Part shown: positions 2 to 55,009 of the stretch, one piece after another
Numbering within the stretch: the stretch's first letter is position 1
Layout: the number at the start of each line of letters is the position of its first letter
Assembly (NCBI GenBank): GCA_913055675.1
Contig: CAJXKY010000001.1
Location: 11,094 to 75,093 of the forward strand
DNA from: an uncultured Halanaerobiales bacterium
Lineage (GTDB): Bacteria; Bacillota; Halanaerobiia; Halanaerobiales; M55B127
Length of the DNA: 64,000 bases
Reading direction: 5' to 3'
Position numbers and translations under genes: made by a program
Notes under the pieces: generated by a model
Databases searched by the model: none
Seen by the model: the letters and a program-made list of their open reading frames with translations, nothing else
What the model was told of the DNA's origin: nothing

Positions 2-727
2 AATGCCGAAAAATTTATAGCTTATTTTCAAAATTTCAGTAATACTTATTTACCTTTAGAAGACTTAAAGAAATATGTTAAAAAGGCAGCACAAGTTGAA
101 GATGTAGTAGAGGTATGTTTTTCGACAAGACCTGATTGTATTAGTGATAATTATTTAAAGGAATTAAATAATTTAATTGAGGAAAATGATTTGGATATCA
201 ATTTAACTTTGGAACTTGGGTTACAGACAGTTAATTATCACACCTTAAAAGATATAAATCGCAAACATACTTTAGCGGAATTTATAAATGCAGTAATGAT
301 TGCCCATAAATATGATATAAAGGTAGGGGTACATTTAATTTTAAATTTACCTGGTGATACCATGGATGATGTTATAGAAAACGCTAAAGTGATATCGGCT
401 CTAAAAGTTGATAATATTAAATTGCATGCCTTATATATAAGAAAAAATACACAGTTTGCTGAAATGTATGAAAATGGTGAAATTAAATTAGAAAGTAAAG
501 AGGAGTATATAAATAGAGTTTTAACATTTTTAGAATACCTATCACCTGATATAGCCGTCCAGCGTTTATTAGGTAGAGCTCCAGAAGAAGAGACTCTCTT
601 TGTTAACTGGGGTAATCATTGGGCCCAAATTCACCAAAAGATTTTGAATAAAATGAATAAGATTAATTTCAAACAGGGCTCTAAATATAATTATTTGGAT
701 GGTAAAGCACTAAGAAACATTGACTGA
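2..727 (+). CDS. radical SAM protein, TIGR01212/YtqA-like (5' end outside window)
   Basis: Reading frame is open from the window edge. It covers the C-terminal half of a radical-SAM barrel (LELGLQTVNYHTLKDINRKH, IKLHALYI). Confidence 0.7.
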   Translation, partial: NAEKFIAYFQNFSNTYLPLEDLKKYVKKAAQVEDVVEVCFSTRPDCISDNYLKELNNLIEENDLDINLTLELGLQTVNYHTLKDINRKHTLAEFINAVMIAHKYDIKVGVHLILNLPGDTMDDVIENAKVISALKVDNIKLHALYIRKNTQFAEMYENGEIKLESKEEYINRVLTFLEYLSPDIAVQRLLGRAPEEETLFVNWGNHWAQIHQKILNKMNKINFKQGSKYNYLDGKALRNID

Positions 728-20594: not shown

Positions 20595-21386
20595 TTAAAC
20601 TGTATATTTTACGATTATTTCAGGGTCAAGAACTCTAAACATAAATGATTCACTAATAAACAATCTTACTGATTTAGAATCATGTTCTTCGAATCCGATT
20701 GAGAAGTCTTGACCAATTGTTAGTTCTAAGTCTTCATGATCTTTTGGAATTAAGAGTGCTCCTTCTATTTCTTCACTAAAGACTATTTCGCCACCAATAA
20801 CTTCTTCTATACGTTTATTTAAAGGATAACCCTTTATTTGCTTTTGAATTCTTGAATATGCTTCTTTACCTACAATTAGATTATAAGGTTTATCAGCATA
20901 TACATCTTGTAACATGATCATACCTTCACTTACTGAATCCATAATAGAAGAATCTTCTTTTCCAAATGAAAGGGATTTTTTAGCTACTTTATTTAAACCT
21001 TTAATGTCACCTGCTTTAAATCCATTATAGATTGCGTTATCTTCAAATTCAGCCATTTTTTCGACAGCTTTTTCTAATGGACCTAAATCAACATCTTTAG
21101 CTCCTCTTTCTAAATTATCCATTTCCCATCTGTTTAGTTCAAAAGTATAACGTGATTCTATAAGAGGAGTTACTTTATATTTACTACTTCTTACTTCATC
21201 TTCATTTCCTTTAATAATTCCAAGTTTACCTTCTGAAATTGAATTGAATTCTATACCATGAGGACCATCTACATTCACAGATTTACGAGCTGTTAATTGA
21301 GTTTTGAAAACTTCAGCAGCTCTTTCATCTATTTCGTCCCATGCCTTTTGAGTTAAAGGAGCTTGTTCTCTTTTTAATAAATCCAT
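20595..21386 (-). CDS. family 1 encapsulin nanocompartment shell protein
   Basis: 263 aa. N-terminus MDLLKREQAPLTQKAWDEIDERA and overall linocin-M18/HK97-fold encapsulin pattern. Lies directly downstream of a cargo gene. Confidence 0.9.
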   Translation of the reverse strand: MDLLKREQAPLTQKAWDEIDERAAEVFKTQLTARKSVNVDGPHGIEFNSISEGKLGIIKGNEDEVRSSKYKVTPLIESRYTFELNRWEMDNLERGAKDVDLGPLEKAVEKMAEFEDNAIYNGFKAGDIKGLNKVAKKSLSFGKEDSSIMDSVSEGMIMLQDVYADKPYNLIVGKEAYSRIQKQIKGYPLNKRIEEVIGGEIVFSEEIEGALLIPKDHEDLELTIGQDFSIGFEEHDSKSVRLFISESFMFRVLDPEIIVKYTV

Positions 21387-21407
21387 ATTAATACCTCCTT
21401 AAAAATG

Positions 21408-21764
21408 TTATTTCATATTACCAATATTTAAACCTTTAGATTCACCTTCGTCATCATCTTCTTCATCTTCACCTTCAGCCTCTTCAATTTCTGTTATCGG
21501 TTGATTGGTAAATAGATAGGTTTCTAATTCTTCTTTCCAAGCTGGAACATTTCTTCTCAACCATTCTAATGCCATGGCGGCATGTTCAATTTCTTCATCG
21601 CGATTGTGTTCTAAAATTGCTTGTACATCGGGATCATTAGTTGCAGAAGCTCTCTGATTGTACCAATTCACAGCCTCAACTTCTTCTTTTAAACTATTTA
21701 ATATACGTGCCGTGTCTAAAGTTTTTTCGTCCATATTTTCTTGTGGTTCATGATAATCTGACAT
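21408..21764 (-). CDS. encapsulated ferritin-like cargo protein (EncFtn) with C-terminal targeting peptide
   Basis: EncFtn core (EEVEAVNWYNQR...EHNRDEEIEHAAMALEW), acidic linker, and C-terminal GLNIGNMK resembling the G-S-L-x-I-G-S-L-K encapsulin localisation sequence. Confidence 0.85.
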   Translation of the reverse strand: MSDYHEPQENMDEKTLDTARILNSLKEEVEAVNWYNQRASATNDPDVQAILEHNRDEEIEHAAMALEWLRRNVPAWKEELETYLFTNQPITEIEEAEGEDEEDDDEGESKGLNIGNMK

Positions 21765-25256: not shown

Positions 25257-25567
25257 ATTAATTTAATGTAAGCTTATATTAGAAGAGAAAGTACTTTAAA
25301 AATTTATTAATCATCAATATTATTATTCGATTTTCTTACAATTATTCAATATATTTAAATCAAGTTTAGAAGATTTCTATATTAAAGTAATAAATTAAAC
25401 CAATAAAGCAAAATCATCCCTGTGTGTAAATATTTTTGTTGAATGGTATAAATAAGTTTAGGCTATATTTAAAAGGAACGGTTATTGTTAACTTTGAAAT
25501 AATAACTATAATTTAAGTTTAATATTTTTTTATTATTAGTAAAAGCAAAAAATAATTCAATAATCAA

Positions 25568-25595
25568 TTACAACACAAATATAATATGTTATAAT
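25568..25595 (+). promoter_or_regulatory. candidate promoter of the M-like/S-like pair
   Basis: TTACAA (25568-73), 16 nt, TATAAT (25590-95). Followed by AGAGGTGG RBS and ATG 25617. Confidence 0.5.
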
Positions 25596-25616
25596 TTTTA
25601 AAAGAGGTGGTAAAAT

Positions 25617-26534
25617 ATGGTAGAAGAATCTTCTCTGAAAGCAGAAATTAAAGAAATAGAGGATTTTATAAAAAACAATGAGAATAATCCGATAGATGAT
25701 ATAAATAGAATTCTTGAAATATTAACTAATTATAAAAACGATTCGATGAGTATAAACAAAAGTAATCCCTATTATGGAGTAATAAAAGAGATGATTTTAT
25801 TAGAACCGAAAAAAAAATATCAAGTTTTATTCAATGTTTTTAATAATCTTATTATTAATAAAGAGTTACCAATATTAATTACTGACAATTTAATAGAATT
25901 GATAGCTAGACAAATAGATATAATTAGTAATGCAAAATCTATCAATTTATTATTAACAAATAATAATGCTAAATTACTAGGACAAATTTATTATAATACT
26001 AATATAGATCATATAGATATTTATAGTGAGGAAATTAAATATAAAAATATATTTAAAAAACTATATAATATTGGTGAAATAAATAATGTTGAGTTTATTG
26101 AAAAAAATATAATAAATACAAAACAGCAAAGAAAGTATGATTTGATATTAAGTCCTGTATTATTTAAAAGTAAAAAGGTTAACTTTAATAATGAAAAAGT
26201 TGATATTAAAGAAGCAGTAATTGAGGAAATATTGAATAGATTAAAAAATGATGGTTATTTGTTTAGTATTGTAAAAGATGGTATCTTAAACAATAAACAA
26301 TTTGAAGGACTTAGAGAAAAGTTATTAGATAAGTTTGATCTCTTATCAATTATAGAATTTCCTAAAACTATTTCATATGAAAATCGAGCGGTTAATACTT
26401 CACTTTTAATTATTAGAAATAATGAAGAACAAAATGAAAAAGTGTTTTTAGCACTACTTGAAAAAGATTCAAAAGAGGAGACAAACAATTTAATAGAAAA
26501 ATTCAACTCGTATTATTGTGGAGTGGTTAAATGA
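25617..26534 (+). CDS. HsdM-like N6-adenine methyltransferase homolog with degenerate SAM-binding and catalytic motifs
   Basis: The fold order matches gamma-class N6-MTases. Motif I is INLLLTNNNAKLL instead of DPxCGSGxFL. Motif IV is DLILSPVLF instead of D..xNPPF. The post-motif-IV region is conserved (DGYLFSIVKDGILNN..GLREKLLDKFDLLSIIEFP...NTSLLIIRNN). Confidence 0.6.
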   Translation: MVEESSLKAEIKEIEDFIKNNENNPIDDINRILEILTNYKNDSMSINKSNPYYGVIKEMILLEPKKKYQVLFNVFNNLIINKELPILITDNLIELIARQIDIISNAKSINLLLTNNNAKLLGQIYYNTNIDHIDIYSEEIKYKNIFKKLYNIGEINNVEFIEKNIINTKQQRKYDLILSPVLFKSKKVNFNNEKVDIKEAVIEEILNRLKNDGYLFSIVKDGILNNKQFEGLREKLLDKFDLLSIIEFPKTISYENRAVNTSLLIIRNNEEQNEKVFLALLEKDSKEETNNLIEKFNSYYCGVVK

Positions 26535-27820
26535 AATCATTAATAATTAACCAAAGTGATTTTGAATCAAAATGGTCAGTAAACAGGTATCTTAATTTAC
26601 CTAAACCACCTGATACAGAGCTAATAAATATAACAGAAATACTATATATTAATCCCGAAAAAAGATATCTAAGTAATAATAAGATAACTGAGGACATGGA
26701 ATTAATAGAAGCAAAATCGGTAGATAAAAATACAGGTATGATTAAAAACCCAATCAAAATAAGAAACAAAAATGATTTGCCTCAAAGAGCCAGGTTGATT
26801 GCCAAACCAGGAGATATTATTTTTCCAACTATTCAAAGTGAAAATATTTCACCCATTTTCATCAAAAATAATGATTATATAGTCTCGGATTATTTTGCAG
26901 TTCTTGTACCAAAGTATAATAGGATGACAGACCCTTATTATTTATATTGGTCTTTACAAGATGATTATGTAAAAGAACAGGTGAGATCTTATTATCAAGG
27001 TAGTTATGGCAAAAAAATTAATATTGAAGAATTTAAAAAAATAAAAATTAAGTGGTTGGATAAAACTAAAAGAAAAAAGAAAAGTAAGAATGTAAAAAGT
27101 TTTCTTTCTGCACTTGAAGAGAAAAACAGTGAATTATCTTTAAAAGATACTATTGATAGGATATTTGAAGATACATTTGAAATCAATAAAGAGGAGCTTA
27201 AAAGTGAAAAAAGTAAAATTGCTTCTAAAAATTTATTGGAAAAGCAAAAAACTTGGAATATAAAGCAGTTGTTGGTTGCAAAATTAAAAGAAAATACAAC
27301 TCATCAAGTTAGGAAACTTAATGAAATTGCCCTAAATATTACCATGGGATTACAACATCGTAATGTAGAAAAGATAGATAAAAAATCTCTAATTAAAGGT
27401 AAAAACATTGAAGTTATGAAATTAAAGTTACAAGACAAAAATAAAAGCCCGGTTCATACTGTAGAAAAACATCAACTACAAAATAATGATATTATAATTA
27501 GAGTTAAGGGTAAAATTGGACCATGCACACTGGTAACAAAGGAAGAAGAAGGAATGCATTTTTATAATGATATAGCTAAAATCAAAGCAGATAAAAACAT
27601 TGTTATGCCTCAGTATTTATCCTTATATTTAAATGGATTTTTTGGAGATTATTACTTAAATAAATATAGCAAGGATAAATCTATGACTTATTTAAACATT
27701 AAATCTCTTAATAAAATTCCGGTTATTATTCCGGGAATATTAGATCAATTTAAAATAATTGAAAGATTTCATAACGAAAAAATTATTCATTTGATAAACA
27801 AAAACAATATTTTTAATTAA
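26531..27820 (+). CDS. HsdS-like specificity subunit homolog (two target-recognition domains plus coiled-coil spacers)
   Basis: Duplicated TRD pattern: AKPGDIIFPTI...YLYWSLQ...INIEEFKKIKI and LQNNDIIIRVKG...YLSLYLNG...LNIKSLNKIPVIIP, each followed by a helical spacer. Shows ATGA start/stop overlap with the M-like gene. Confidence 0.6.
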   Translation: MKSLIINQSDFESKWSVNRYLNLPKPPDTELINITEILYINPEKRYLSNNKITEDMELIEAKSVDKNTGMIKNPIKIRNKNDLPQRARLIAKPGDIIFPTIQSENISPIFIKNNDYIVSDYFAVLVPKYNRMTDPYYLYWSLQDDYVKEQVRSYYQGSYGKKINIEEFKKIKIKWLDKTKRKKKSKNVKSFLSALEEKNSELSLKDTIDRIFEDTFEINKEELKSEKSKIASKNLLEKQKTWNIKQLLVAKLKENTTHQVRKLNEIALNITMGLQHRNVEKIDKKSLIKGKNIEVMKLKLQDKNKSPVHTVEKHQLQNNDIIIRVKGKIGPCTLVTKEEEGMHFYNDIAKIKADKNIVMPQYLSLYLNGFFGDYYLNKYSKDKSMTYLNIKSLNKIPVIIPGILDQFKIIERFHNEKIIHLINKNNIFN

Positions 27821-27977
27821 TAATAATTTCTTTGTTTAACTAGAAAGGAGAAGGTCCTGATATAATTAAATCAAGCCTTCTCGTTTAAATTAAATATACA
27901 AATAAATATTGAGATATTTTTTATAAAGGTTCGATTAAATATCATAGTTATTCTCAGCAATATTATTTACAGTATCT

Positions 27978-39104: not shown

Positions 39105-39275
39105 AATAAATAAACTAACGGGGATTGGTGAAATTCCATACCGGTGGTAGAGTCCACAAGCTAATTTAATTAGTTGAACTGGTTAAATTCCAGTACCGAC
39201 AGTATAGTCTGGAAGGGAGTTAGATAATATATTCATGTAATTATAATCCCTTCCTTACGGAGGGATTTTTTATTT
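39105..39275 (+). promoter_or_regulatory. FMN riboswitch (RFN element) with terminator expression platform
   Basis: Conserved blocks GGGATTGGTGAAATTCCATACCGGTGGTA, GGTTAAATTCCAGTACCGACAGTATAGTCTGGAAGGGAG, then AATCCCTTCC-TTAC-GGAGGGATTTTTT. Lies upstream of ribD. Confidence 0.9.
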
Positions 39276-41090: not shown

Positions 41091-42296
41091 ATGGATCAAA
41101 TTGAAGAAGCTATTGAAGATATAAAAAATGGTGAAATGGTCATTGTAGTAGACGATGAAGATAGAGAAAACGAGGGAGATCTTGTGATGGCAGCTCAAAA
41201 GGCTGATAAAGATAGTATTAACTTCATGATAAAAAAAGCTAGAGGATTAGTTTGTACACCTTTAGAAGAAGAAAGAATAAATGAACTAGATTTACCTCAA
41301 ATGGTTGAAAATAATACAGATAATCATGAAACAGCTTTTACAGTTTCAGTAGATTATAAAGATACAACTACAGGTATTTCTGCCCATGAAAGAGCACTTA
41401 CAATTAAGAAATTAGCTGATGATAATGCTCTAGCTCAAGACTTTAAAAGACCTGGTCATATTTTTCCCTTAACAGCTAGACAGGGAGGAGTATTAAGGCG
41501 AGCAGGGCATACAGAAGCAGCTGTTGATCTTGCTAAATTAGCTGGCTTAAAACCAGCAGGAGTTATCTGTGAAATAATTAAAGAAGATGGTAGTATGGCC
41601 AGAATGCCGGAACTTAAAGAGTTTGCAAAAAAATATAATCTTAAAATGATTACCATAGAAGATTTAATTAAATATAGAAAGAAAAAAGATAAATTAGTTC
41701 GTAAAGAAGCAGATGCAGAATTACCGACTAAGTTTGGTGATTTTAATATAGAAATATTTACAACTGAAGTTGACAATAAAGAACATATTGCTATCATTAA
41801 AGGAGATGTAAAAGGTAAAGAAGATGTTTTAGTCCGTGTACATTCTCAATGTATAACTGGAGATATATTTGGCTCTCTGAGATGTGATTGTGGGCAACAA
41901 CTAGCTGCTGCTCTTCAAATGATTGAAGAAGAAGGTGAAGGAGTAGTATTATATATGCGGCAAGAAGGTAGAGGTATAGGACTTAAAAACAAAATTAAAG
42001 CATACTCTTTACAGGATGAAGGTATGGATACTGTTGAAGCTAATGAAGCATTGGGTTTTAAGCCAGATTTAAGAGATTATGGTATTGGAGCTCAAATCTT
42101 GTCCGAACTTGGACTTCATACATTAAGATTAATAACAAACAACCCGAAAAAAGTTATAGGTTTAGAGGGTTATGGTTTGAAGATTACTGAACGAATTCCA
42201 TTAGAAATAGAGCCGAATGAAGAAAATGAGTTTTACTTAAAAGTGAAAAAAGATAAGATGGGACATCTGTTAGATTTGGACACAAATAATAATTAA
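41091..42296 (+). CDS. ribBA: bifunctional 3,4-dihydroxy-2-butanone-4-phosphate synthase / GTP cyclohydrolase II
   Basis: [30 protein letters not shown]...CDCG. Confidence 0.95.
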
Positions 42297-45539: not shown

Positions 45540-46675
45540 GTTTTGTCTATATAAATCGGGTTCGCTCAAACTCCCAATAATCCAACTGATTTTGACTCTT
45601 TTCTAACTAGGTTTAAAACCCTTATCCATAACAATGCAAAACTTGTCTTTGGACTCGAAGATACCCAGGGACTAGGCCATTCACTCGCACAATGGTTAAT
45701 TAAAAAAGACTATACTGTTAAAGAAATCAATCCTGTTCAAGCTAAAAGAAAAAGAAAACAAAGTACTTCTCCTGACAAGTCCGATAAAGTTGATACAGAA
45801 GCTATTGCAAACGTTCTTTTAAACAAATGACGCCAATTTTAAGGCTATTAGAAAGCTTAACAACTAAAGAAAGAATTTAGTCAAAGCACAAACCAGGGTT
45901 AAAAACAGATTACATAACCTCATTCATCAACAGTATCCAGAATATAAGAAGTTTTTCAGTGATCCTTTCGGGAAAACGGCTTTAGCCTTTTGGAATAAAT
46001 ACCCTCACCCAAATGAATTAAAGCATATTGGTGAAAAAAGATTAAATAACTTTTTGAAAAAACAGGCCAAGAGTATTTCCAATGATAAAGCTTCTCATAT
46101 CCTTTCTCTGGTAAATAAGGATAAATCTCAAGTAATTTCTACTGAAACCAGAAAATCTTTAATATCGATGCTCATCAAACAGTTAAAACTGATCAGCCAA
46201 AATCTTGTAGAAATAAATCATCTACTGAAAAAATCAGTAGAAAGTAGTCAGTATAAGCTTACTACCATGCCGAATATTGATTTTAAATTAGCTGCCTTAT
46301 TTATTTCCAATATCAAAAATATCGATCGTTTTGACTCTGCTGATCAATTAGCTTGTTATGCAGGATTAGCACCGGTAGAATATAGTTCGGGCAAATCTCA
46401 AAAATCAACTTCCAAAAAATATGGCTGTCGGGACCTTAATAATGTCTTCTATATCCTTGCTCTACAGCAAATCGGTAGTTACAAAAACGGTCGAATTAAA
46501 AACCCGGTCGCTTATAACTATTATCAAAAAAGTTTAAAGAAGGCAAATCTAAAAAAACAGCTCTTACCTGTTTACAAAGAAGATTAGTTGATATTATCTA
46601 TGCTATGATGAGGGATAGATCTGTTTATGAATTACCTGAAATACCCAACTATGAAATTTTAAATACAGTTGTTTA
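45540..46675 (+). mobile_element. decayed IS110-family transposase gene (several frameshifts/stops, N-terminus eroded)
   Basis: Fragments lie in three frames. Fragment 1: LVFGLEDTQGLGHSLAQWL...EINPVQAKRKRK..KSDKVDTEAIANVLL, then stop. Fragment 2: RVKNRLHNLIHQQYPEY...LTTMPNIDFKLAALFISNI...FDSADQLACYAGLAPVEYSSGKS. Fragment 3: ALTCLQRRLVDIIYAMMRD. Confidence 0.8.
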
Positions 46676-47222: not shown

Positions 47223-49097
47223 ATTAAATTTACCGCTTATGTTAACTTAACCACAAAAGAAATTCAAGTAAAGGAAACCCCGATAGAGTTAATAAAAAAA
47301 TATTTAGGAAGCAGAGGATATGCTGCAAAAATATTATACGATAATGTTGGGTTAGAGATTGAGCCCTTATCAGAAGATAATTTATTAATTTTCTCTCCTG
47401 GACTTTTATCTGGTACACCTTGGCCTACTGGAGCTCGTTATACAGTTACTGCTAAATCTCCTTTAACAGGAGCTTATGGATATTCTAATTCTTCAGGTCA
47501 TTTTGGACCAGAATTAAGAAAAGCAGGTTTTGCAGCTATAGTATTTGAAGGTAAATCTGAAAAACCTGTATATCTTAAAATAGAGGATGAAAATCTTGAA
47601 TTACTAGAAGCTACTGATTATTGGGGTAAAAATGCGTTAGAAACCGAAAAATTACTTAAAGAAAAACATGATGGTTCAAAAGTTGCTGCTATCGGGCAAG
47701 CAGGAGAAAATTTAGTCAAAGTATCTTCTGTAATAAATGACGGTGGAAGAGCAGCTGCTCGCTGTGGTCTAGGGGCAGTAATGGGTTATAAAAATTTGAA
47801 GGCTTTAGTAGTAAATGCTTCTCAGGAAGTAAATTACTCACAAGAATTTAAAGATAAAGCAATAGAAAAAATGAAAAAGGCAGGTACTCATCCCGGCTCG
47901 AAAAGTCTTCGTAAATGGGGAACAGTAGAATTGGTAGATCCCAAAAATCAAAGTGGAGACCTACCAACAAGAAATCACCAATCAGGACAATTTAATTATG
48001 CGGATAAAGTTAATGCAAAAGCTCTGGATAATTATGTATATCAAAATACCGGTTGTTATTCTTGTCCAATCAGATGTTCTAGACTTTCAAAAGTAGAAAA
48101 TGGCGATTATCAGGCCGAAATTGAAGGGCCTGAATATGAAACTATAAATTCAATGGGCCCAATGGTTGATAACCATGATATGGAATTAATAATTTATGCA
48201 AATAAATTGTGTAATGAATATGGAATTGATACAATTTCTACTGGAGTAATAATAAGTTTTGCTATGGAATGTCATGAAAAGGGAATTTTAGATGATGAAG
48301 AATTAAGTTTAGAATGGGGCGATAAAGAAACTATTACTGAACTAATAAAGAAAATTGCTTTTAGAGAAGGTTTAGGCGATTTATTGGCTGAAGGATGTTA
48401 CAGGGCTGCAAAAAAAATAGGTCAGGGAGCTGAAGAATTAGCCATGCATGTCAAAAAAATGGAAATACCAATGCAAGAGCCCCGTGCTTCAAAAGCTATG
48501 GGGCTTGGACATGCTACTTCAAATAGAGGTGCCGATCACTTATATGGCTTACCTACTATTGATTTAACAGGTAATGTGGAGGTGGCCGAAAAATACTTCT
48601 CTGAATATATGCCACAGATCCTTGAAGTGTACTCTCAAAAATATAAACCAGAAATGCTGAGTTTTACTCAAGAGTATAATGCTATTTCTGATGCTTTAGG
48701 AGTATGTAAATTTTCAACTACTGAAAATTTCGCACTTTTACCTGAAGATATCGCAGAGGGTATCAGTCTATTAAGAGAGGATCTTGATTTTGATGAAGAA
48801 GAATTACTTAAAGCTGGTGAAAGAATAATTAATTTAGAAAGAATGTACAATTATCGACATGGTATGACAAGGAGTGCAGATAATTTACCGGAGAGATTTT
48901 TAAAAGACTCTTTGAATATTTATGAAGTTGAAAAAGATAATAAATTAACAGATAAGGTAGTGGTAGAGAATCTAAAAGTAGATCTTGATCAAATGCTTGA
49001 TATATATTATCAGTTAAGAGGTTGGAATCAAAAGGGAGTTCCTACTGAAGAAAAATTAAAAGAACTAGATATGGAAGAATTAATTAAAGATCTTTAA
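47223..49097 (+). CDS. aldehyde:ferredoxin oxidoreductase family protein (tungstopterin type), paralog 1, with a non-canonical ATT start or a 5' defect
   Basis: AOR homology (YLGSRGYAAKILYD..., GCYSCPIRC, EGPEYET, DTIS) is open in frame from 47211. There is no ATG/GTG/TTG in that frame before 47781. ATT 47223 lies 8 nt after AAGGAG (47209-14). Confidence 0.7.
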   Translation: MKFTAYVNLTTKEIQVKETPIELIKKYLGSRGYAAKILYDNVGLEIEPLSEDNLLIFSPGLLSGTPWPTGARYTVTAKSPLTGAYGYSNSSGHFGPELRKAGFAAIVFEGKSEKPVYLKIEDENLELLEATDYWGKNALETEKLLKEKHDGSKVAAIGQAGENLVKVSSVINDGGRAAARCGLGAVMGYKNLKALVVNASQEVNYSQEFKDKAIEKMKKAGTHPGSKSLRKWGTVELVDPKNQSGDLPTRNHQSGQFNYADKVNAKALDNYVYQNTGCYSCPIRCSRLSKVENGDYQAEIEGPEYETINSMGPMVDNHDMELIIYANKLCNEYGIDTISTGVIISFAMECHEKGILDDEELSLEWGDKETITELIKKIAFREGLGDLLAEGCYRAAKKIGQGAEELAMHVKKMEIPMQEPRASKAMGLGHATSNRGADHLYGLPTIDLTGNVEVAEKYFSEYMPQILEVYSQKYKPEMLSFTQEYNAISDALGVCKFSTTENFALLPEDIAEGISLLREDLDFDEEELLKAGERIINLERMYNYRHGMTRSADNLPERFLKDSLNIYEVEKDNKLTDKVVVENLKVDLDQMLDIYYQLRGWNQKGVPTEEKLKELDMEELIKDL

Positions 49098-53146: not shown

Positions 53147-55009
53147 ATGGGAAAAGGTTATAATGGCAAGATTCTTAGAGTTAATTTAAATGATCATACT
53201 TGTGAAATAGAAAAAAAAGAAGAAAAATTCTATCGGAAATATCTTGGTGGTCGTAATTTTATTGCTCACTTTCTATTAAAAGAACTTGAACCCGGAATTG
53301 ATCCACTTGGTCCAGAGAATATAATGGTTTTTGCTCCTGGTATTTTGACGGGTTCTCCAATTGGGGGAACAGGTAGAAATAGTGTAGGTGCTAAATCGCC
53401 GTTAACAGGCTATTATGGAGAAGCAGAAGCGGGTGGATATTTTGGTGCTGAGTTAAAAAAAGCAGGTTTTGATGCATTAATAATAGAGGGTAAATCTGAC
53501 ACGCCGGTTTATCTTTGGATTAAAGATGAAGAAGTACATATTAAAGATGCTACTGAACTTCAAGGAAAGAAAATTGCCGAAGTTCAAAAGGATATTGAAA
53601 AAGAGACTGGAGAAAGTGCTGTTCGAACAGCTTTGATTGGTCCTGGCGGAGAAAATGAAGTTAAGTTTGCCAGTATAATGAACGATATTACTCATGCCTA
53701 TGGTAGGACAGGCATGGGAGCAGTTATGGGTTCGAAAAACTTAAAAGGAGTAGCTGTTAAAGCTAACAATAGGCTTGATTTTCATGACAGAGATCAAGTT
53801 TTAGAAATTGCAAAATGGTTAAATGAAAACGTTGATGAATATTGTGGATGGGCAGTAGAAATGGGAACTCCTGGATCTATTATGGATCATAATATGGGGG
53901 ATGGACTTCCAACAAGAAATTTCAATGAAGCCAGTTTTGAAAATGCCCAAGATATTTCTGGTGAGGAAATGCATTCTACTATATTAGTTGGGAGAGATAC
54001 TTGTTATGCCTGTCCAGTTAGATGCAAACAGGTGGTAGAGGTAGAAGAACCATATAATGTAGATAGAGTATATGGAGGGCCTGAATATGAAACTCTTACA
54101 TCTTTTGGTTCTATGTGTGGGGTTTCAGATTTAAAAGCTGTTGCTAAGGCTAATGAGATTTGTAATGCTTATACATTAGATACTATATCGACAGGTGGAG
54201 CAATTGCTTTTGCAATGGAATGTTTTGAGAAAGGAATTATTGATAAAAAAGCGACCAATGGTATGGAATTAGTTTTTGGTAATGGGGAAGCCATGGTTAA
54301 GTTAACAAAACAAATAGCTAACCGCGAAGGTCTCGGAGATATTTTAGCAGATGGAATTAGGCAAGCGGCTAAAACGTTTGGTAATGGGGCAGAAAAATTA
54401 GCGGTAGAAGTAAAGGGGCAGTCAGTTCCTTATCATGAGCCCAGAACAAAGAAAGGTACAGCTTTAGGTTATGCACTTTCTCCAACTGGTGCTGATCATG
54501 TTCATAATATATTAGATGACTTTTATGTGCCTGGTAGTTTTGCTATTGATGAAATCAAGGCTCTTGGCATTTCTGAAGGTTTACCAATGGAACAATTAGA
54601 TTACCAGAAAGTAAGAATGTATGCTTATCGAGTAATGTGGACAAGTTTATTAAACTCATTAGTTATGTGTTTATTTATGCCTTTCACATACGAACAACAG
54701 GTAGAAATGGTTAATGCTGTTACAGGTTGGAATACCACCACATTTGATTTAGCTAAAATTGGAGAAAGAAGCATCAACTTAACTAGAGTATTTAATTTAC
54801 GTGAAGGACTAACAGCTAAAGAAGATACACTCCCTGATAAAATGTTTGAAGTGGGCATTTTTGATGATGATAGAAAAGTAGATAGGAAAAAATTTAAAGA
54901 AGCTGTGCAAACATATTATAAAATGATGGGATGGACCAGAAAAGAAGGTAAACCGGAAAAAGAAAAATTAATGGAACTTGATATTGAATGGGCGAATGAG
55001 TATATTTAA
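53147..55009 (+). CDS. aldehyde:ferredoxin oxidoreductase family protein (tungstopterin type), paralog 2
   Basis: 620 aa. ILRVNLND..YLGGRNF, TCYACPVRC, GGPEYETL, DTISTGG and the C-terminal AOR domains. Confidence 0.9.
   Translation: MGKGYNGKILRVNLNDHTCEIEKKEEKFYRKYLGGRNFIAHFLLKELEPGIDPLGPENIMVFAPGILTGSPIGGTGRNSVGAKSPLTGYYGEAEAGGYFGAELKKAGFDALIIEGKSDTPVYLWIKDEEVHIKDATELQGKKIAEVQKDIEKETGESAVRTALIGPGGENEVKFASIMNDITHAYGRTGMGAVMGSKNLKGVAVKANNRLDFHDRDQVLEIAKWLNENVDEYCGWAVEMGTPGSIMDHNMGDGLPTRNFNEASFENAQDISGEEMHSTILVGRDTCYACPVRCKQVVEVEEPYNVDRVYGGPEYETLTSFGSMCGVSDLKAVAKANEICNAYTLDTISTGGAIAFAMECFEKGIIDKKATNGMELVFGNGEAMVKLTKQIANREGLGDILADGIRQAAKTFGNGAEKLAVEVKGQSVPYHEPRTKKGTALGYALSPTGADHVHNILDDFYVPGSFAIDEIKALGISEGLPMEQLDYQKVRMYAYRVMWTSLLNSLVMCLFMPFTYEQQVEMVNAVTGWNTTTFDLAKIGERSINLTRVFNLREGLTAKEDTLPDKMFEVGIFDDDRKVDRKKFKEAVQTYYKMMGWTRKEGKPEKEKLMELDIEWANEYI

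Follow-up and report, generated by a model that had tools for sequence, protein, structure and literature searches.

An orphan type I-like M/S gene pair with degenerate methyltransferase motifs is under purifying selection in uncultured Halanaerobiales and is probably reused for a job other than DNA methylation

Why would a bacterium keep the modification and specificity genes of a type I restriction-modification (R-M) system when the motifs for methylating DNA are degenerate and no restriction gene accompanies them? We asked this of two genes in a 64,000-nt stretch of DNA from an uncultured Halanaerobiales bacterium (GenBank assembly GCA_913055675.1, contig CAJXKY010000001.1, positions 11,094 to 75,093 of the forward strand; the whole stretch is called the window here). 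The first gene encodes a 305-aa protein resembling HsdM (M-like), and the second encodes a 429-aa protein resembling HsdS (S-like). Both open reading frames (ORFs) are intact, and they are coupled by an ATGA stop/start overlap at 26531-34, as a first-pass annotation made from the letters alone had read. That annotation took the genes for a selected orphan M/S-like pair with degenerate catalytic motifs, and this interpretation is supported by the results below. The pair is probably reused for a job other than methylating DNA.

Pfam gave no significant match for either the M-like or the S-like protein. This silence itself speaks of divergence, and we turned to more specialised libraries and to structure. 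For the M-like protein, we found matches in the C-terminal half only, to PADLOC mad2 (7e-11), MTase_I (1.8e-9) and PglX and to NCBIfam adenine methyltransferases. With the lone M-like sequence, phmmer returned only noise from the PDB sequences, whereas the profile of its family succeeded, finding HsdM 3lkd (4.7e-13), EcoR124 HsdM (3.6e-9), 2f8l and M.BseCI. The AlphaFold (AF2) model of the M-like protein, built from a 16-sequence family alignment, has a predicted local distance difference test (pLDDT) of 89.7 and a predicted template modelling score (pTM) of 0.87. Foldseek ranked 2f8l (lmo1582, a 323-aa standalone protein) first in the PDB (E 9.5e-14, template modelling score (TM) 0.70), and the runners-up were the HsdM structures 2okc, 3ufb, 7eew, 5ybb_A, 7btq and 2y7c, which include EcoR124I and EcoKI. 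The Foldseek probability was 1.00 for 2f8l, HsdM, M.BseCI, CamA and PacII, and all 50 matches listed are N6-adenine DNA or RNA methyltransferases. By this model, the M-like protein is predicted to have the gamma-class N6-adenine methyltransferase fold, Rossmann-like and seven-stranded, with the motif order X-I-II-III-IV-V-VIII, and the HsdM-type fold named by the first-pass annotation is confirmed. For the pair as a whole, profile and fold searches give significant homology to methyltransferases and to HsdS.

The catalytic motifs within this fold are degenerate. Residue-level alignments place INLLLT-NNNAKLL on motif I, which in other enzymes binds S-adenosylmethionine (SAM), and YDLILSPVLF on motif IV, so both replacements noticed earlier stand. 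The aligned motif I segment, LLLT-NNNAKLL, has zero glycines, compared to DPACGTG and DPAAGSG in solved enzymes, and was also aligned to the SGxG of family group A, which is described below. With the family profile, the segment 'iLlpf-sgtgkLl' falls on DPACGTG/DPAAGSG and 'yDlivsnvPf' falls on NPPY/NPPF. In the model, residues 109-113 form beta1 and residues 118-125 form the next helix. The motif II acid at the end of strand 2 aligns with Y136, with no conserved acidic residue nearby, and the motif IV position has neither N/D nor an aromatic residue. We found [NDS]PP[YFWH] nowhere in the M-like protein or its full-length relatives. Conserved are D175, the motif VIII aromatic Y254 and the motif-III-aligned N164. 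In addition, the M-like protein is without the first ~125 residues of HsdM (its alignment to 3lkd begins at 3lkd residue 126), has no Pfam match to HsdM_N (305 aa vs ~500 aa for full-length HsdM) and is acidic, with an isoelectric point (pI) of 5.47.

For the S-like protein, PADLOC Specificity_I matched in two stretches (5e-26), several PADLOC models matched end to end, and NCBIfam MADS5 matched at 2e-16. Its family profile found S.BsaXI in the PDB (9e-14, residues 90-416), T. tengcongensis HsdS 5ybb_D (7e-12, first half) and EcoKI HsdS (3e-10, second half). These profile matches identify the S-like protein as a true HsdS homolog across both halves, with two putative target recognition domains (TRDs), in agreement with the duplicated TRD layout proposed before. 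BLASTP of its N-terminal half against its C-terminal half was not significant (E 0.63); hence, the internal duplication is visible to profiles only. The S-like protein is basic (pI 9.55).

The S-like domains differ in how well they are kept. Mean pairwise identity within the clade is 0.84 for the TRD1-like region, 0.82 for the TRD2-like region and 0.74 for the central helical region, given approximate boundaries, and the corresponding values for the window protein against four distant family members are 0.38, 0.32 and 0.24. The helical regions of ordinary HsdS stay conserved. The recognition domains of type I systems, by contrast, ordinarily recombine and become diverse (Loenen et al. 2014, PMC3874165). 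Relative to ordinary HsdS, the conservation pattern in these alignments is inverted, with the TRDs above the coiled coil. Such a pattern, with the TRD-like regions more conserved than the coiled coil, speaks for a single fixed target and against a defence specificity that keeps changing. The S-like family also reads IKWL…R..K at the junction from TRD1 to the coiled coil, near where M docks, as opposed to PLPPL.EQ..I in canonical HsdS.

In comparison with the type I M2S1 methylases (M.EcoKI, M.EcoR124I and T. tengcongensis HsdM/HsdS; PDB 2y7c, 7btq and 5ybb), the pair is alike in having an M gene followed by an S gene, translational coupling, an S protein with two recognition domains and coiled coils, and an M protein with the gamma-class fold and a C-terminal helix. 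It is unlike them in that the M-like protein has 305 aa instead of ~500 aa, with the N-terminal ~125 residues gone and motifs I, II and IV lost, and in that the pair is without hsdR, conserves its TRDs above its coiled coil, is inherited vertically and sits in a housekeeping neighbourhood. The pair descends from a type I modification methylase but lacks several of the features that define one.

The intact frames stand in DNA where stops should be frequent. From the local composition (45% A, 31% T), a stop is expected about every 10 codons, the chance of an open frame is ~4e-15 for 305 codons and ~5e-21 for 429 codons, and the longest stop-free run in 1000 shuffles was 76 codons on average and 198 at most. 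The GC content is 21.2% for the M-like gene, 25.5% for the S-like gene and 17.8% for the upstream spacer, compared to 30.5% for the whole window, so the pair does lie in an extremely AT-rich islet; each orthologous locus shows the same GC deficit of the M-S pair. As had been reported, no HsdR or other nuclease gene adjoins the pair. Throughout the 64-kb window, we found no HsdR, no other nuclease gene, no helicase-nuclease, no M or S paralogue, and no R-M, bacteriophage exclusion (BREX) or other defence gene. The large ORFs examined there encode transporters and metabolic enzymes, and nearly all genes are on the + strand.

A search for close homologs of the M-like protein covered 5.8 billion proteins and yielded only eight, at 64-100% identity (loci and proteins are given L and P numbers here). 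All have exactly 305 aa except P0002, which has 308 aa and is otherwise identical to the window protein, and the contigs that carry them are from uncultured Halanaerobiales. Among the aligned close homologs P0003-P0008, LLT-N… and S-P-[V/I]-L-F are kept in all, down to 64% identity, and S179, P180, L182 and F183 are invariant within the clade; over the 7 sequences compared, the residues of the degenerate motifs either do not change or change conservatively. Hence, the motif variants are conserved among homologs and do not mark a lone decayed allele.

In five orthologous loci, the M-S pair occupies the same chromosomal slot, preceded by formate-dehydrogenase/NADH-dehydrogenase genes, encapsulin and EncFtn, an ABC transporter and two small membrane proteins, and followed by a GNAT gene, a two-transmembrane (2TM) protein, MsrB and a P-type ATPase. 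No hsdR is present in the orthologous loci. The genes that border the pair turn over among relatives (Rce1-like, 254-aa methyltransferase, MMPL, IS605) while M-S persists. By Nei-Gojobori estimates, dN/dS is 0.21-0.31 for the M-like gene, 0.09-0.15 for the S-like gene and 0.03-0.13 for flanking genes, with dS values of 0.55-1.06 in the pair against 0.4-1.16 in the flanks. The M-like gene evolves 2-3 times faster than the S-like gene, whose constraint equals that of the neighbouring ABC permease. Since the dS of the pair matches that of its flanks and its dN/dS is low, M-S co-diverged with the chromosome under purifying selection. Hence, the pair is vertically inherited, syntenic and under purifying selection; the last point had been suspected by the first-pass annotation, which set selection against simple decay.

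Beyond these close relatives, no more than 14 proteins (clusters) scored below an E of 1e-10 when 1.84 billion representatives were searched exhaustively with a profile. They include full-length M-like relatives, which have 309-336 aa and 19-26% identity. Where the surroundings could be read, an S-like gene of 411-425 aa comes after the M-like gene in every case, mostly with an overlap; L013 has a 207-aa gene between them. By sequence, this is a rare family of ~320-aa M-like and ~420-aa S-like pairs with general catalytic decay. N/D occupies the motif IV catalytic position in only one of the 13 distant full-length relatives (P0018, NSPF), and none of the 13 has NPPF. The next genes differ: a Prim-Pol/D5-type primase-helicase in L009/L021 and L011, a sigma-70-like gene in L012, a full-length type I methylase and S pair in L017, and an Mre11/Rad50/HerA operon in L018. 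Because these third genes differ and there is no consistent nuclease partner, the two-gene module is the unit.

The family falls into two groups. Group A (e.g. Natroniella acetigena WP_248627269.1) retains SGxG at motif I and mostly E at the motif II position (I in P0018, Q in P0019 and A in P0028), and its motif IV reads HPPF, QPPI, SPPL, IPPL, LPPI, NSPF or ASPF. Judged from these variants, the catalytic position is free to vary in group A, which shows that constraint on catalysis is relaxed. In group B, made up of the window clade, P0009-13 and P0016, all three motifs (I, II and IV) are gone, and the former motif I loop is unrelated between lineages, with sister lineages reading LLQPNL, LIYSLR, LYSFVM and so on at the same positions. 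More distant profile matches carry canonical NPPF. In a neighbour-joining tree (no support values), canonical enzymes lie outside, groups A and B are sisters, and the window clade is inside B. Tentatively, this may reflect a stepwise decay in which the catalytic residue was lost first and the SAM loop second.

The pair also appears to have its own promoter. The 360-nt spacer upstream is non-coding, as described earlier, with no credible ORF, and it is ~85% identical, one indel aside, to that of the close relative L007. The last ~100 nt before the M-like ATG are kept in five orthologous loci despite a coding dS of 0.6-1.0, at which synonymous sites are near-saturated. Promoter-like hexamers in the spacer are not above shuffles (26 found vs 24.6 expected). 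Hence, the dedicated promoter claimed by the first-pass annotation is supported because the block is conserved across five loci, and the hexamer scan adds nothing to it. The 4-nt M/S overlap is the same in L001, L003, L006, L007 and L012, and short overlaps or gaps are found in L009, L011, L017 and L018; the Shine-Dalgarno within the M-like 3' end is likewise kept across the family.

What could such a pair do? Our favoured explanation, to which we give a tentative preference, is a non-catalytic M2S1-type complex that recognises one fixed, bipartite sequence in DNA and has a regulatory or architectural role. The two different S-like recognition domains, spaced by the coiled coil, would read the bipartite sequence, and the M-like protein would be a clamp and scaffold attached via its C-terminal helix, with no enzymatic part. 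In this Halanaerobiales lineage, it would have been domesticated on the chromosome as a factor that binds DNA sequence-specifically, with expression driven by a conserved promoter of its own. We infer that the two proteins would form this complex, that SAM binding would have been lost, that the complex would bind DNA and that it would have such a role in the cell. In type I enzymes, neither S nor M alone binds DNA, but the M2S trimer does (Loenen 2014, PMC3874165). Because S needs M for DNA binding in type I enzymes, the M-like protein would be retained after catalysis was lost. There is precedent for both halves of the idea: the HsdMS of Ronin functions without methyl transfer (bioRxiv 10.1101/2023.04.06.535777), and Esub1, an HsdS-like protein of S. 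pyogenes, is argued to bind DNA in a role apart from R-M (PMC11754733). Esub1 (SpyM3_0890, PDB 8vsq/8vsr) is a match of the S-like family profile (3.5e-7). Like the S-like protein, it is HsdS-derived and encoded away from R-M genes, and it has been argued to resemble a transcription factor. Unlike the S-like protein, Esub1 is a half-size S that forms a homodimer, with no M-like partner gene and no convincing HsdM binding (PMC11754733).

A more specific version, which we hold with further reserve, is that the pair makes a pseudoenzyme M2S1, without SAM binding or catalysis, that serves as a domesticated chromosomal DNA reader with a fixed target, for regulation or chromosome organisation. The eukaryotic proteins METTL14 (in METTL3-METTL14) and DNMT3L have methyltransferase folds that lost SAM binding or catalysis and are kept under selection as binding or scaffolding subunits; each pairs with an active paralogue in the same complex. 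In contrast, no active partner is evident for the M-S pair.

Several points weigh against the DNA-binding explanation. The analysis identified no DNA target, operator or regulated gene, and the promoter block conserved in the five-locus alignment is without an obvious bipartite site. The loss of SAM binding by the M-like protein is read from sequence motifs, and given the conserved Y254 and N164, a residual ligand pocket is possible. Structure prediction for the S-like protein from 5 close homologs reached a pLDDT of 30, the alignment being too shallow; because that model is unusable, the boundaries of the S-like regions are approximate. The clade is very narrow, since a close-alignment search of 185,579 species representatives (GTDB) found a close relative in 1, a scarcity seldom met in housekeeping factors of importance. 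That the GC of the pair is persistently low suggests that it came from a foreign source. In addition, the primase contexts of L009/L011 and the methylase context of L017 fit better with defence or counter-defence than with a housekeeping regulator.

These contexts bear on the best-surviving alternative, which we consider unlikely: that the dead M2S1 mimics a type I methylase to bind anti-restriction DNA mimics (Ocr, ArdA and similar proteins). Such a decoy or sponge would titrate inhibitors from real R-M or BREX enzymes, or would release or activate an effector encoded elsewhere, as Ronin does. Ronin (E. coli ECOR55; Silas et al., bioRxiv 10.1101/2023.04.06.535777) consists of hsdS and hsdM without hsdR, senses Ocr, ArdA and Aop1, and works in the motif IV mutant F287G; in a decoy the catalytic motifs are dispensable, which would explain the family-wide decay. 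Ronin is independent of methyl transfer, which motif loss would imply for our pair, and its upstream non-coding region belongs to the system; the M-S pair has an upstream non-coding stretch too. Unlike the M-like protein, the Ronin HsdM is full length with canonical NPPF. Ronin also requires a tightly linked 61-aa membrane toxin, RonA, and is found in defence or mobile contexts (integrase, BREX, type I/IV). We found no RonA-like small membrane toxin or other effector adjoining the pair: the intergenic ORFs have at most 32 aa (26-32), use TTG starts and are not conserved, and the flanking spacers of relatives are only 74-128 nt. Identity with Ronin was rejected since there is no toxin gene and M is degenerate rather than intact.

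A decoy would also suit the distant member L017, directly upstream of a full type I methylase and S pair, the other distant members at mobile-element borders, the low GC, which suggests horizontal acquisition, and the strong conserved promoter and Shine-Dalgarno, which fit the high expression that a sponge requires. Set against this, there is no R-M, BREX or other defence gene within 64 kb to protect, and an M-like protein without the N-terminal ~125 HsdM residues is an incomplete mimic. Vertical inheritance, housekeeping-like dN/dS and invariant recognition domains are atypical for defence genes.

It is improbable that the pair is a still-active orphan methyltransferase with a non-canonical site, in which S directs the enzyme to a bipartite site and SAM is held by other residues. 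A confidently predicted Rossmann fold, purifying selection on both genes and the conservation of D175, Y254 and N164 would be expected of an enzyme. Its best structural match, lmo1582 of Listeria monocytogenes (PDB 2f8l), matches over its whole length (TM 0.70), is similar in size and domains (a helical N-domain and a Rossmann domain) and itself has a non-canonical motif IV (DLPVGY), and many related methyltransferase-like proteins have a variant motif IV (DxPFG, HFPFG). However, lmo1582 keeps a glycine-rich motif I (DPACGTANLL) and shares 13% sequence identity with the M-like protein; we know of no S-subunit partner for it. In the M-like protein, the glycine loop, the ribose-binding acid and the motif IV N/D and aromatic residue are all missing at once. 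Group B sister lineages are mutually unrelated at these positions, the pattern of an unconstrained former site, and group A keeps SGxG yet has H, Q, S, I, L, A or N at the catalytic position. That the M-like gene evolves faster than its partner also argues against an active enzyme.

It is more doubtful still that the S-like protein uses the M-like protein as an adaptor to bring in a catalytic HsdM and/or HsdR encoded at another place in the genome, so that this enzyme would gain one more fixed specificity or a complex mixing M and M-like subunits would hemi-methylate DNA. Extra hsdS genes served by one hsdM/hsdR set are known in type I systems (Loenen 2014, PMC3874165), non-canonical type I enzymes whose two M subunits differ are known (PacII M1M2S; PDB 7vs4, a Foldseek match; PMC9613975), and a canonical M and S pair adjoins the L017 pair. 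Within the 64 kb, though, there is no such partner, and the S-like protein diverges from HsdS at the TRD1-to-coiled-coil junction, near the site of M docking. It also co-evolves with an M-like partner of its own, to which translation couples it, and a restriction-proficient complex without cognate methylation would be self-toxic.

That the pair is a decaying relic of R-M or defence, its ORFs still open through chance or because inactivation was recent, is hardly credible: the lost canonical motifs, missing R gene, low GC and plastic flanks (with IS605 in one relative) are what a relic would show, but the open frames are astronomically unlikely by chance, dN/dS is far below 1 in at least five lineages at dS 0.6-1.0, the promoter, Shine-Dalgarno and overlap are conserved, all close homologs but one (308 aa) have 305 aa, and the orthologous loci are 64-88% identical and so are not assembly duplicates of one genome.

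The best NCBIfam/PADLOC names for the pair are Mad2 (methylase) and Mad5 (S subunit), from MADS (methylation-associated defence system; bioRxiv 10.1101/2023.03.30.534895). Mad2 is an active m6A (N6-methyladenine) methylase, unlike what is predicted for the M-like protein, and Mad6-8, mandatory in the model of the MADS authors, are absent from the window. The M-like protein scores 22.8 bits with MADS2 (cut-off 720) and the S-like protein scores 59.6 with MADS5 (cut-off 400). With scores this far under the cut-offs and no further mad-like genes in the window, membership in MADS was rejected. The mad3/mad8-like matches downstream of the Natroniella pair were rejected as well, since they are actually an Mre11/Rad50/HerA repair-type operon.

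Table 1. Features of the M-S locus, in positions of the window
Feature	Position	Residues	Strand	Basis or remark
AT-rich non-coding spacer	25257..25616		.	360 nt, 17.8% GC; place where relatives have Rce1-like protease and/or 254-aa class I methyltransferase gene
Promoter-proximal block with A/T tracts	25520..25616		+	Alignment of 5 orthologous loci
Promoter candidate 1	-35 TTCAAT 25556-61; -10 TATAAT 25580-85		+	18-nt spacing; in all five loci
Promoter candidate 2	ATTACA 25567-72; TGtTATAAT 25587-95		+	17-nt spacing; from scan; deleted in L001
Shine-Dalgarno GAGGTGG	25604..25610		+	6 nt 5' of M-like ATG; GAGGTG invariant in orthologous loci
M-like gene	25617..26534	305 aa	+	N-terminal helical domain, Rossmann methyltransferase fold, C-terminal helix; model and profiles; predicted non-catalytic
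Motif I remnant INLLLTNNNAKLLGQI	25941..25988	109-124	+	No glycine where SAM binders have (D/E)PxxGxG
Motif IV remnant YDLILSPVLF	26136..26165	174-183	+	S179-P-V-L182 replaces N-P-P-F/Y
Coupling signal: GGAGTGG Shine-Dalgarno within M-like 3' end, plus ATGA overlap	26520..26534		+	Read from sequence
S-like gene	26531..27820	429 aa	+	HsdS homolog; PADLOC, NCBIfam, family profile
S-like TRD1-like region	26606-27046	~26-172	+	Approximate boundary
S-like central helical region	27047-27316	~173-262	+	Approximate boundary
S-like TRD2-like region	27317-27730	~263-400	+	Approximate boundary
S-like C-terminal conserved helix		~401-429	+	Approximate boundary
Hairpin then U-rich tail	27844..27886		.	Between convergent S-like and GNAT genes

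The hairpin downstream of the pair has a minimum free energy of -19.5 kcal/mol (z = -4.3), and 0 of 200 shuffles were as stable. It is a probable (bidirectional) terminator, which the consensus terminator scan overlooked because of its long loop. Rfam has no match in or near the M-S locus.

The turnover beside the pair was located in three relatives (L003 12303-15034, L001 12291-14468 and L006 3736-5267). Upstream of the pair, L001, L003 and L006 have a gene for an Rce1-like CPBP protease, and a class I methyltransferase of 254 aa is encoded there in L003 and L006. Downstream, L001 has an intact MMPL transporter, and L003 has MMPL fragments with IS605 TnpA/TnpB. The window has none of these extra genes, and in its spacer tblastn found no trace of the Rce1-like or 254-aa methyltransferase genes. 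The 254-aa methyltransferase was considered as the true catalytic partner and rejected, since it is absent without trace from the window and is absent also from L001 and L007. Among the close homologs, P0003 (a contig of 1260 nt from the Joint Genome Institute (JGI)) equals the window M-like protein over residues 1-252 and P0007/P0008 (64% identity) over the last ~53; by sequence, either two lineages recombined in nature or the metagenome was assembled into a chimera.

In the wider family, L009 (3151-8086, same as L021) and L011 (355-4574) have the pair followed by a same-strand Prim-Pol/D5_N primase-helicase gene, which begins only 29 nt 3' of the pair in L011; further on in L009 is a RecT gene. 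These neighbours suggest that the module also travels at mobile-element edges, and a dead M2S complex might conceivably have to do with recognising origins. In L017 (10001-20972, in a 4.69-Mb genome), 670 nt separate a dead-looking pair of 323 and 419 aa from a full-length type I methylase gene downstream of it (626 aa; PADLOC MTase_I, E = 0), with which goes an S subunit gene (458 aa); after these come three large genes (351, 351 and 1346 aa) with no Pfam or PADLOC match. L017 may thus hold an R-M-like system not characterised so far, with a decoy-like pair beside it. Scanning viral contigs for the S-like family gave nothing, phage GenBank records hold no family relative, and plasmids hold only an unrelated 295-aa methylase without an S gene; the same scan of JGI metagenomes gave two contigs only, both the known P0009 locus. 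Among P0023-P0130, many methyltransferase-like proteins of 650-850 aa have a GxG motif I but no N/D at the first position of motif IV, which reads HFPFG, TPPFG, GPPFG, APPFG, LPPIG and others. Degenerate catalytic motifs may thus be widespread in this corner of the gamma-methyltransferase superfamily.

Elsewhere in the window, an encapsulin shell gene (Linocin_M18) and an EncFtn-like cargo gene (20595-21764, - strand) lie beside formate-dehydrogenase/NADH-dehydrogenase-like genes; they are syntenic in all relatives and strongly conserved, with dN/dS 0.05-0.10. A flavin mononucleotide (FMN) riboswitch (Rfam RF00050, 103.6 bits; 39110-39228, + strand) is upstream of a riboflavin operon that includes a DHBP synthase/GTP cyclohydrolase II gene (41091-42296). 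The aldehyde:ferredoxin oxidoreductase (AFOR) gene at 47781-49097 encodes the C-terminal domains only, and an intact AFOR paralogue is found at 53147-55009. Upstream of the truncated gene are an IS110-family transposase fragment (46054-46587; Transposase_20, 1.9e-17) and ~1.2 kb without long ORFs, and the GC skew reverses at 44-47 kb. An old insertion probably truncated this AFOR gene. Over window positions 1-64000, the GC skew is strongly positive almost throughout, with a cumulative rise that is monotonic to 14, and the genes are nearly all on the + strand, consistent with a leading-strand segment of a Bacillota-type chromosome.

In the databases, members of the family are named 'N-6 DNA methylase', 'restriction endonuclease S subunit' or 'hypothetical protein', and in the literature on dead HsdM/HsdS pairs, on pseudo-methyltransferases with S subunits and on lmo1582/YtxK, we found no description of the M-like/S-like family. 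Type I M and S subunits are as a rule taken for a methylase, and pipelines for methylome or defence annotation will miscall such pairs as orphan type I methyltransferases. If the decoy explanation were true, Ronin-type decoy immunity would extend to Bacillota and to effector-less forms. If the M-like protein is a pseudoenzyme, the pair would be a prokaryotic counterpart of METTL14 and DNMT3L. If the favoured DNA-binding explanation is true, the modular, swappable recognition domains of S would be reusable as a non-enzymatic DNA reader, which matters for how regulators evolve and could serve as a template for design. A conserved pair that is unlikely to methylate and is under purifying selection likely represents an unrecognised class of R-M-derived binding complexes.

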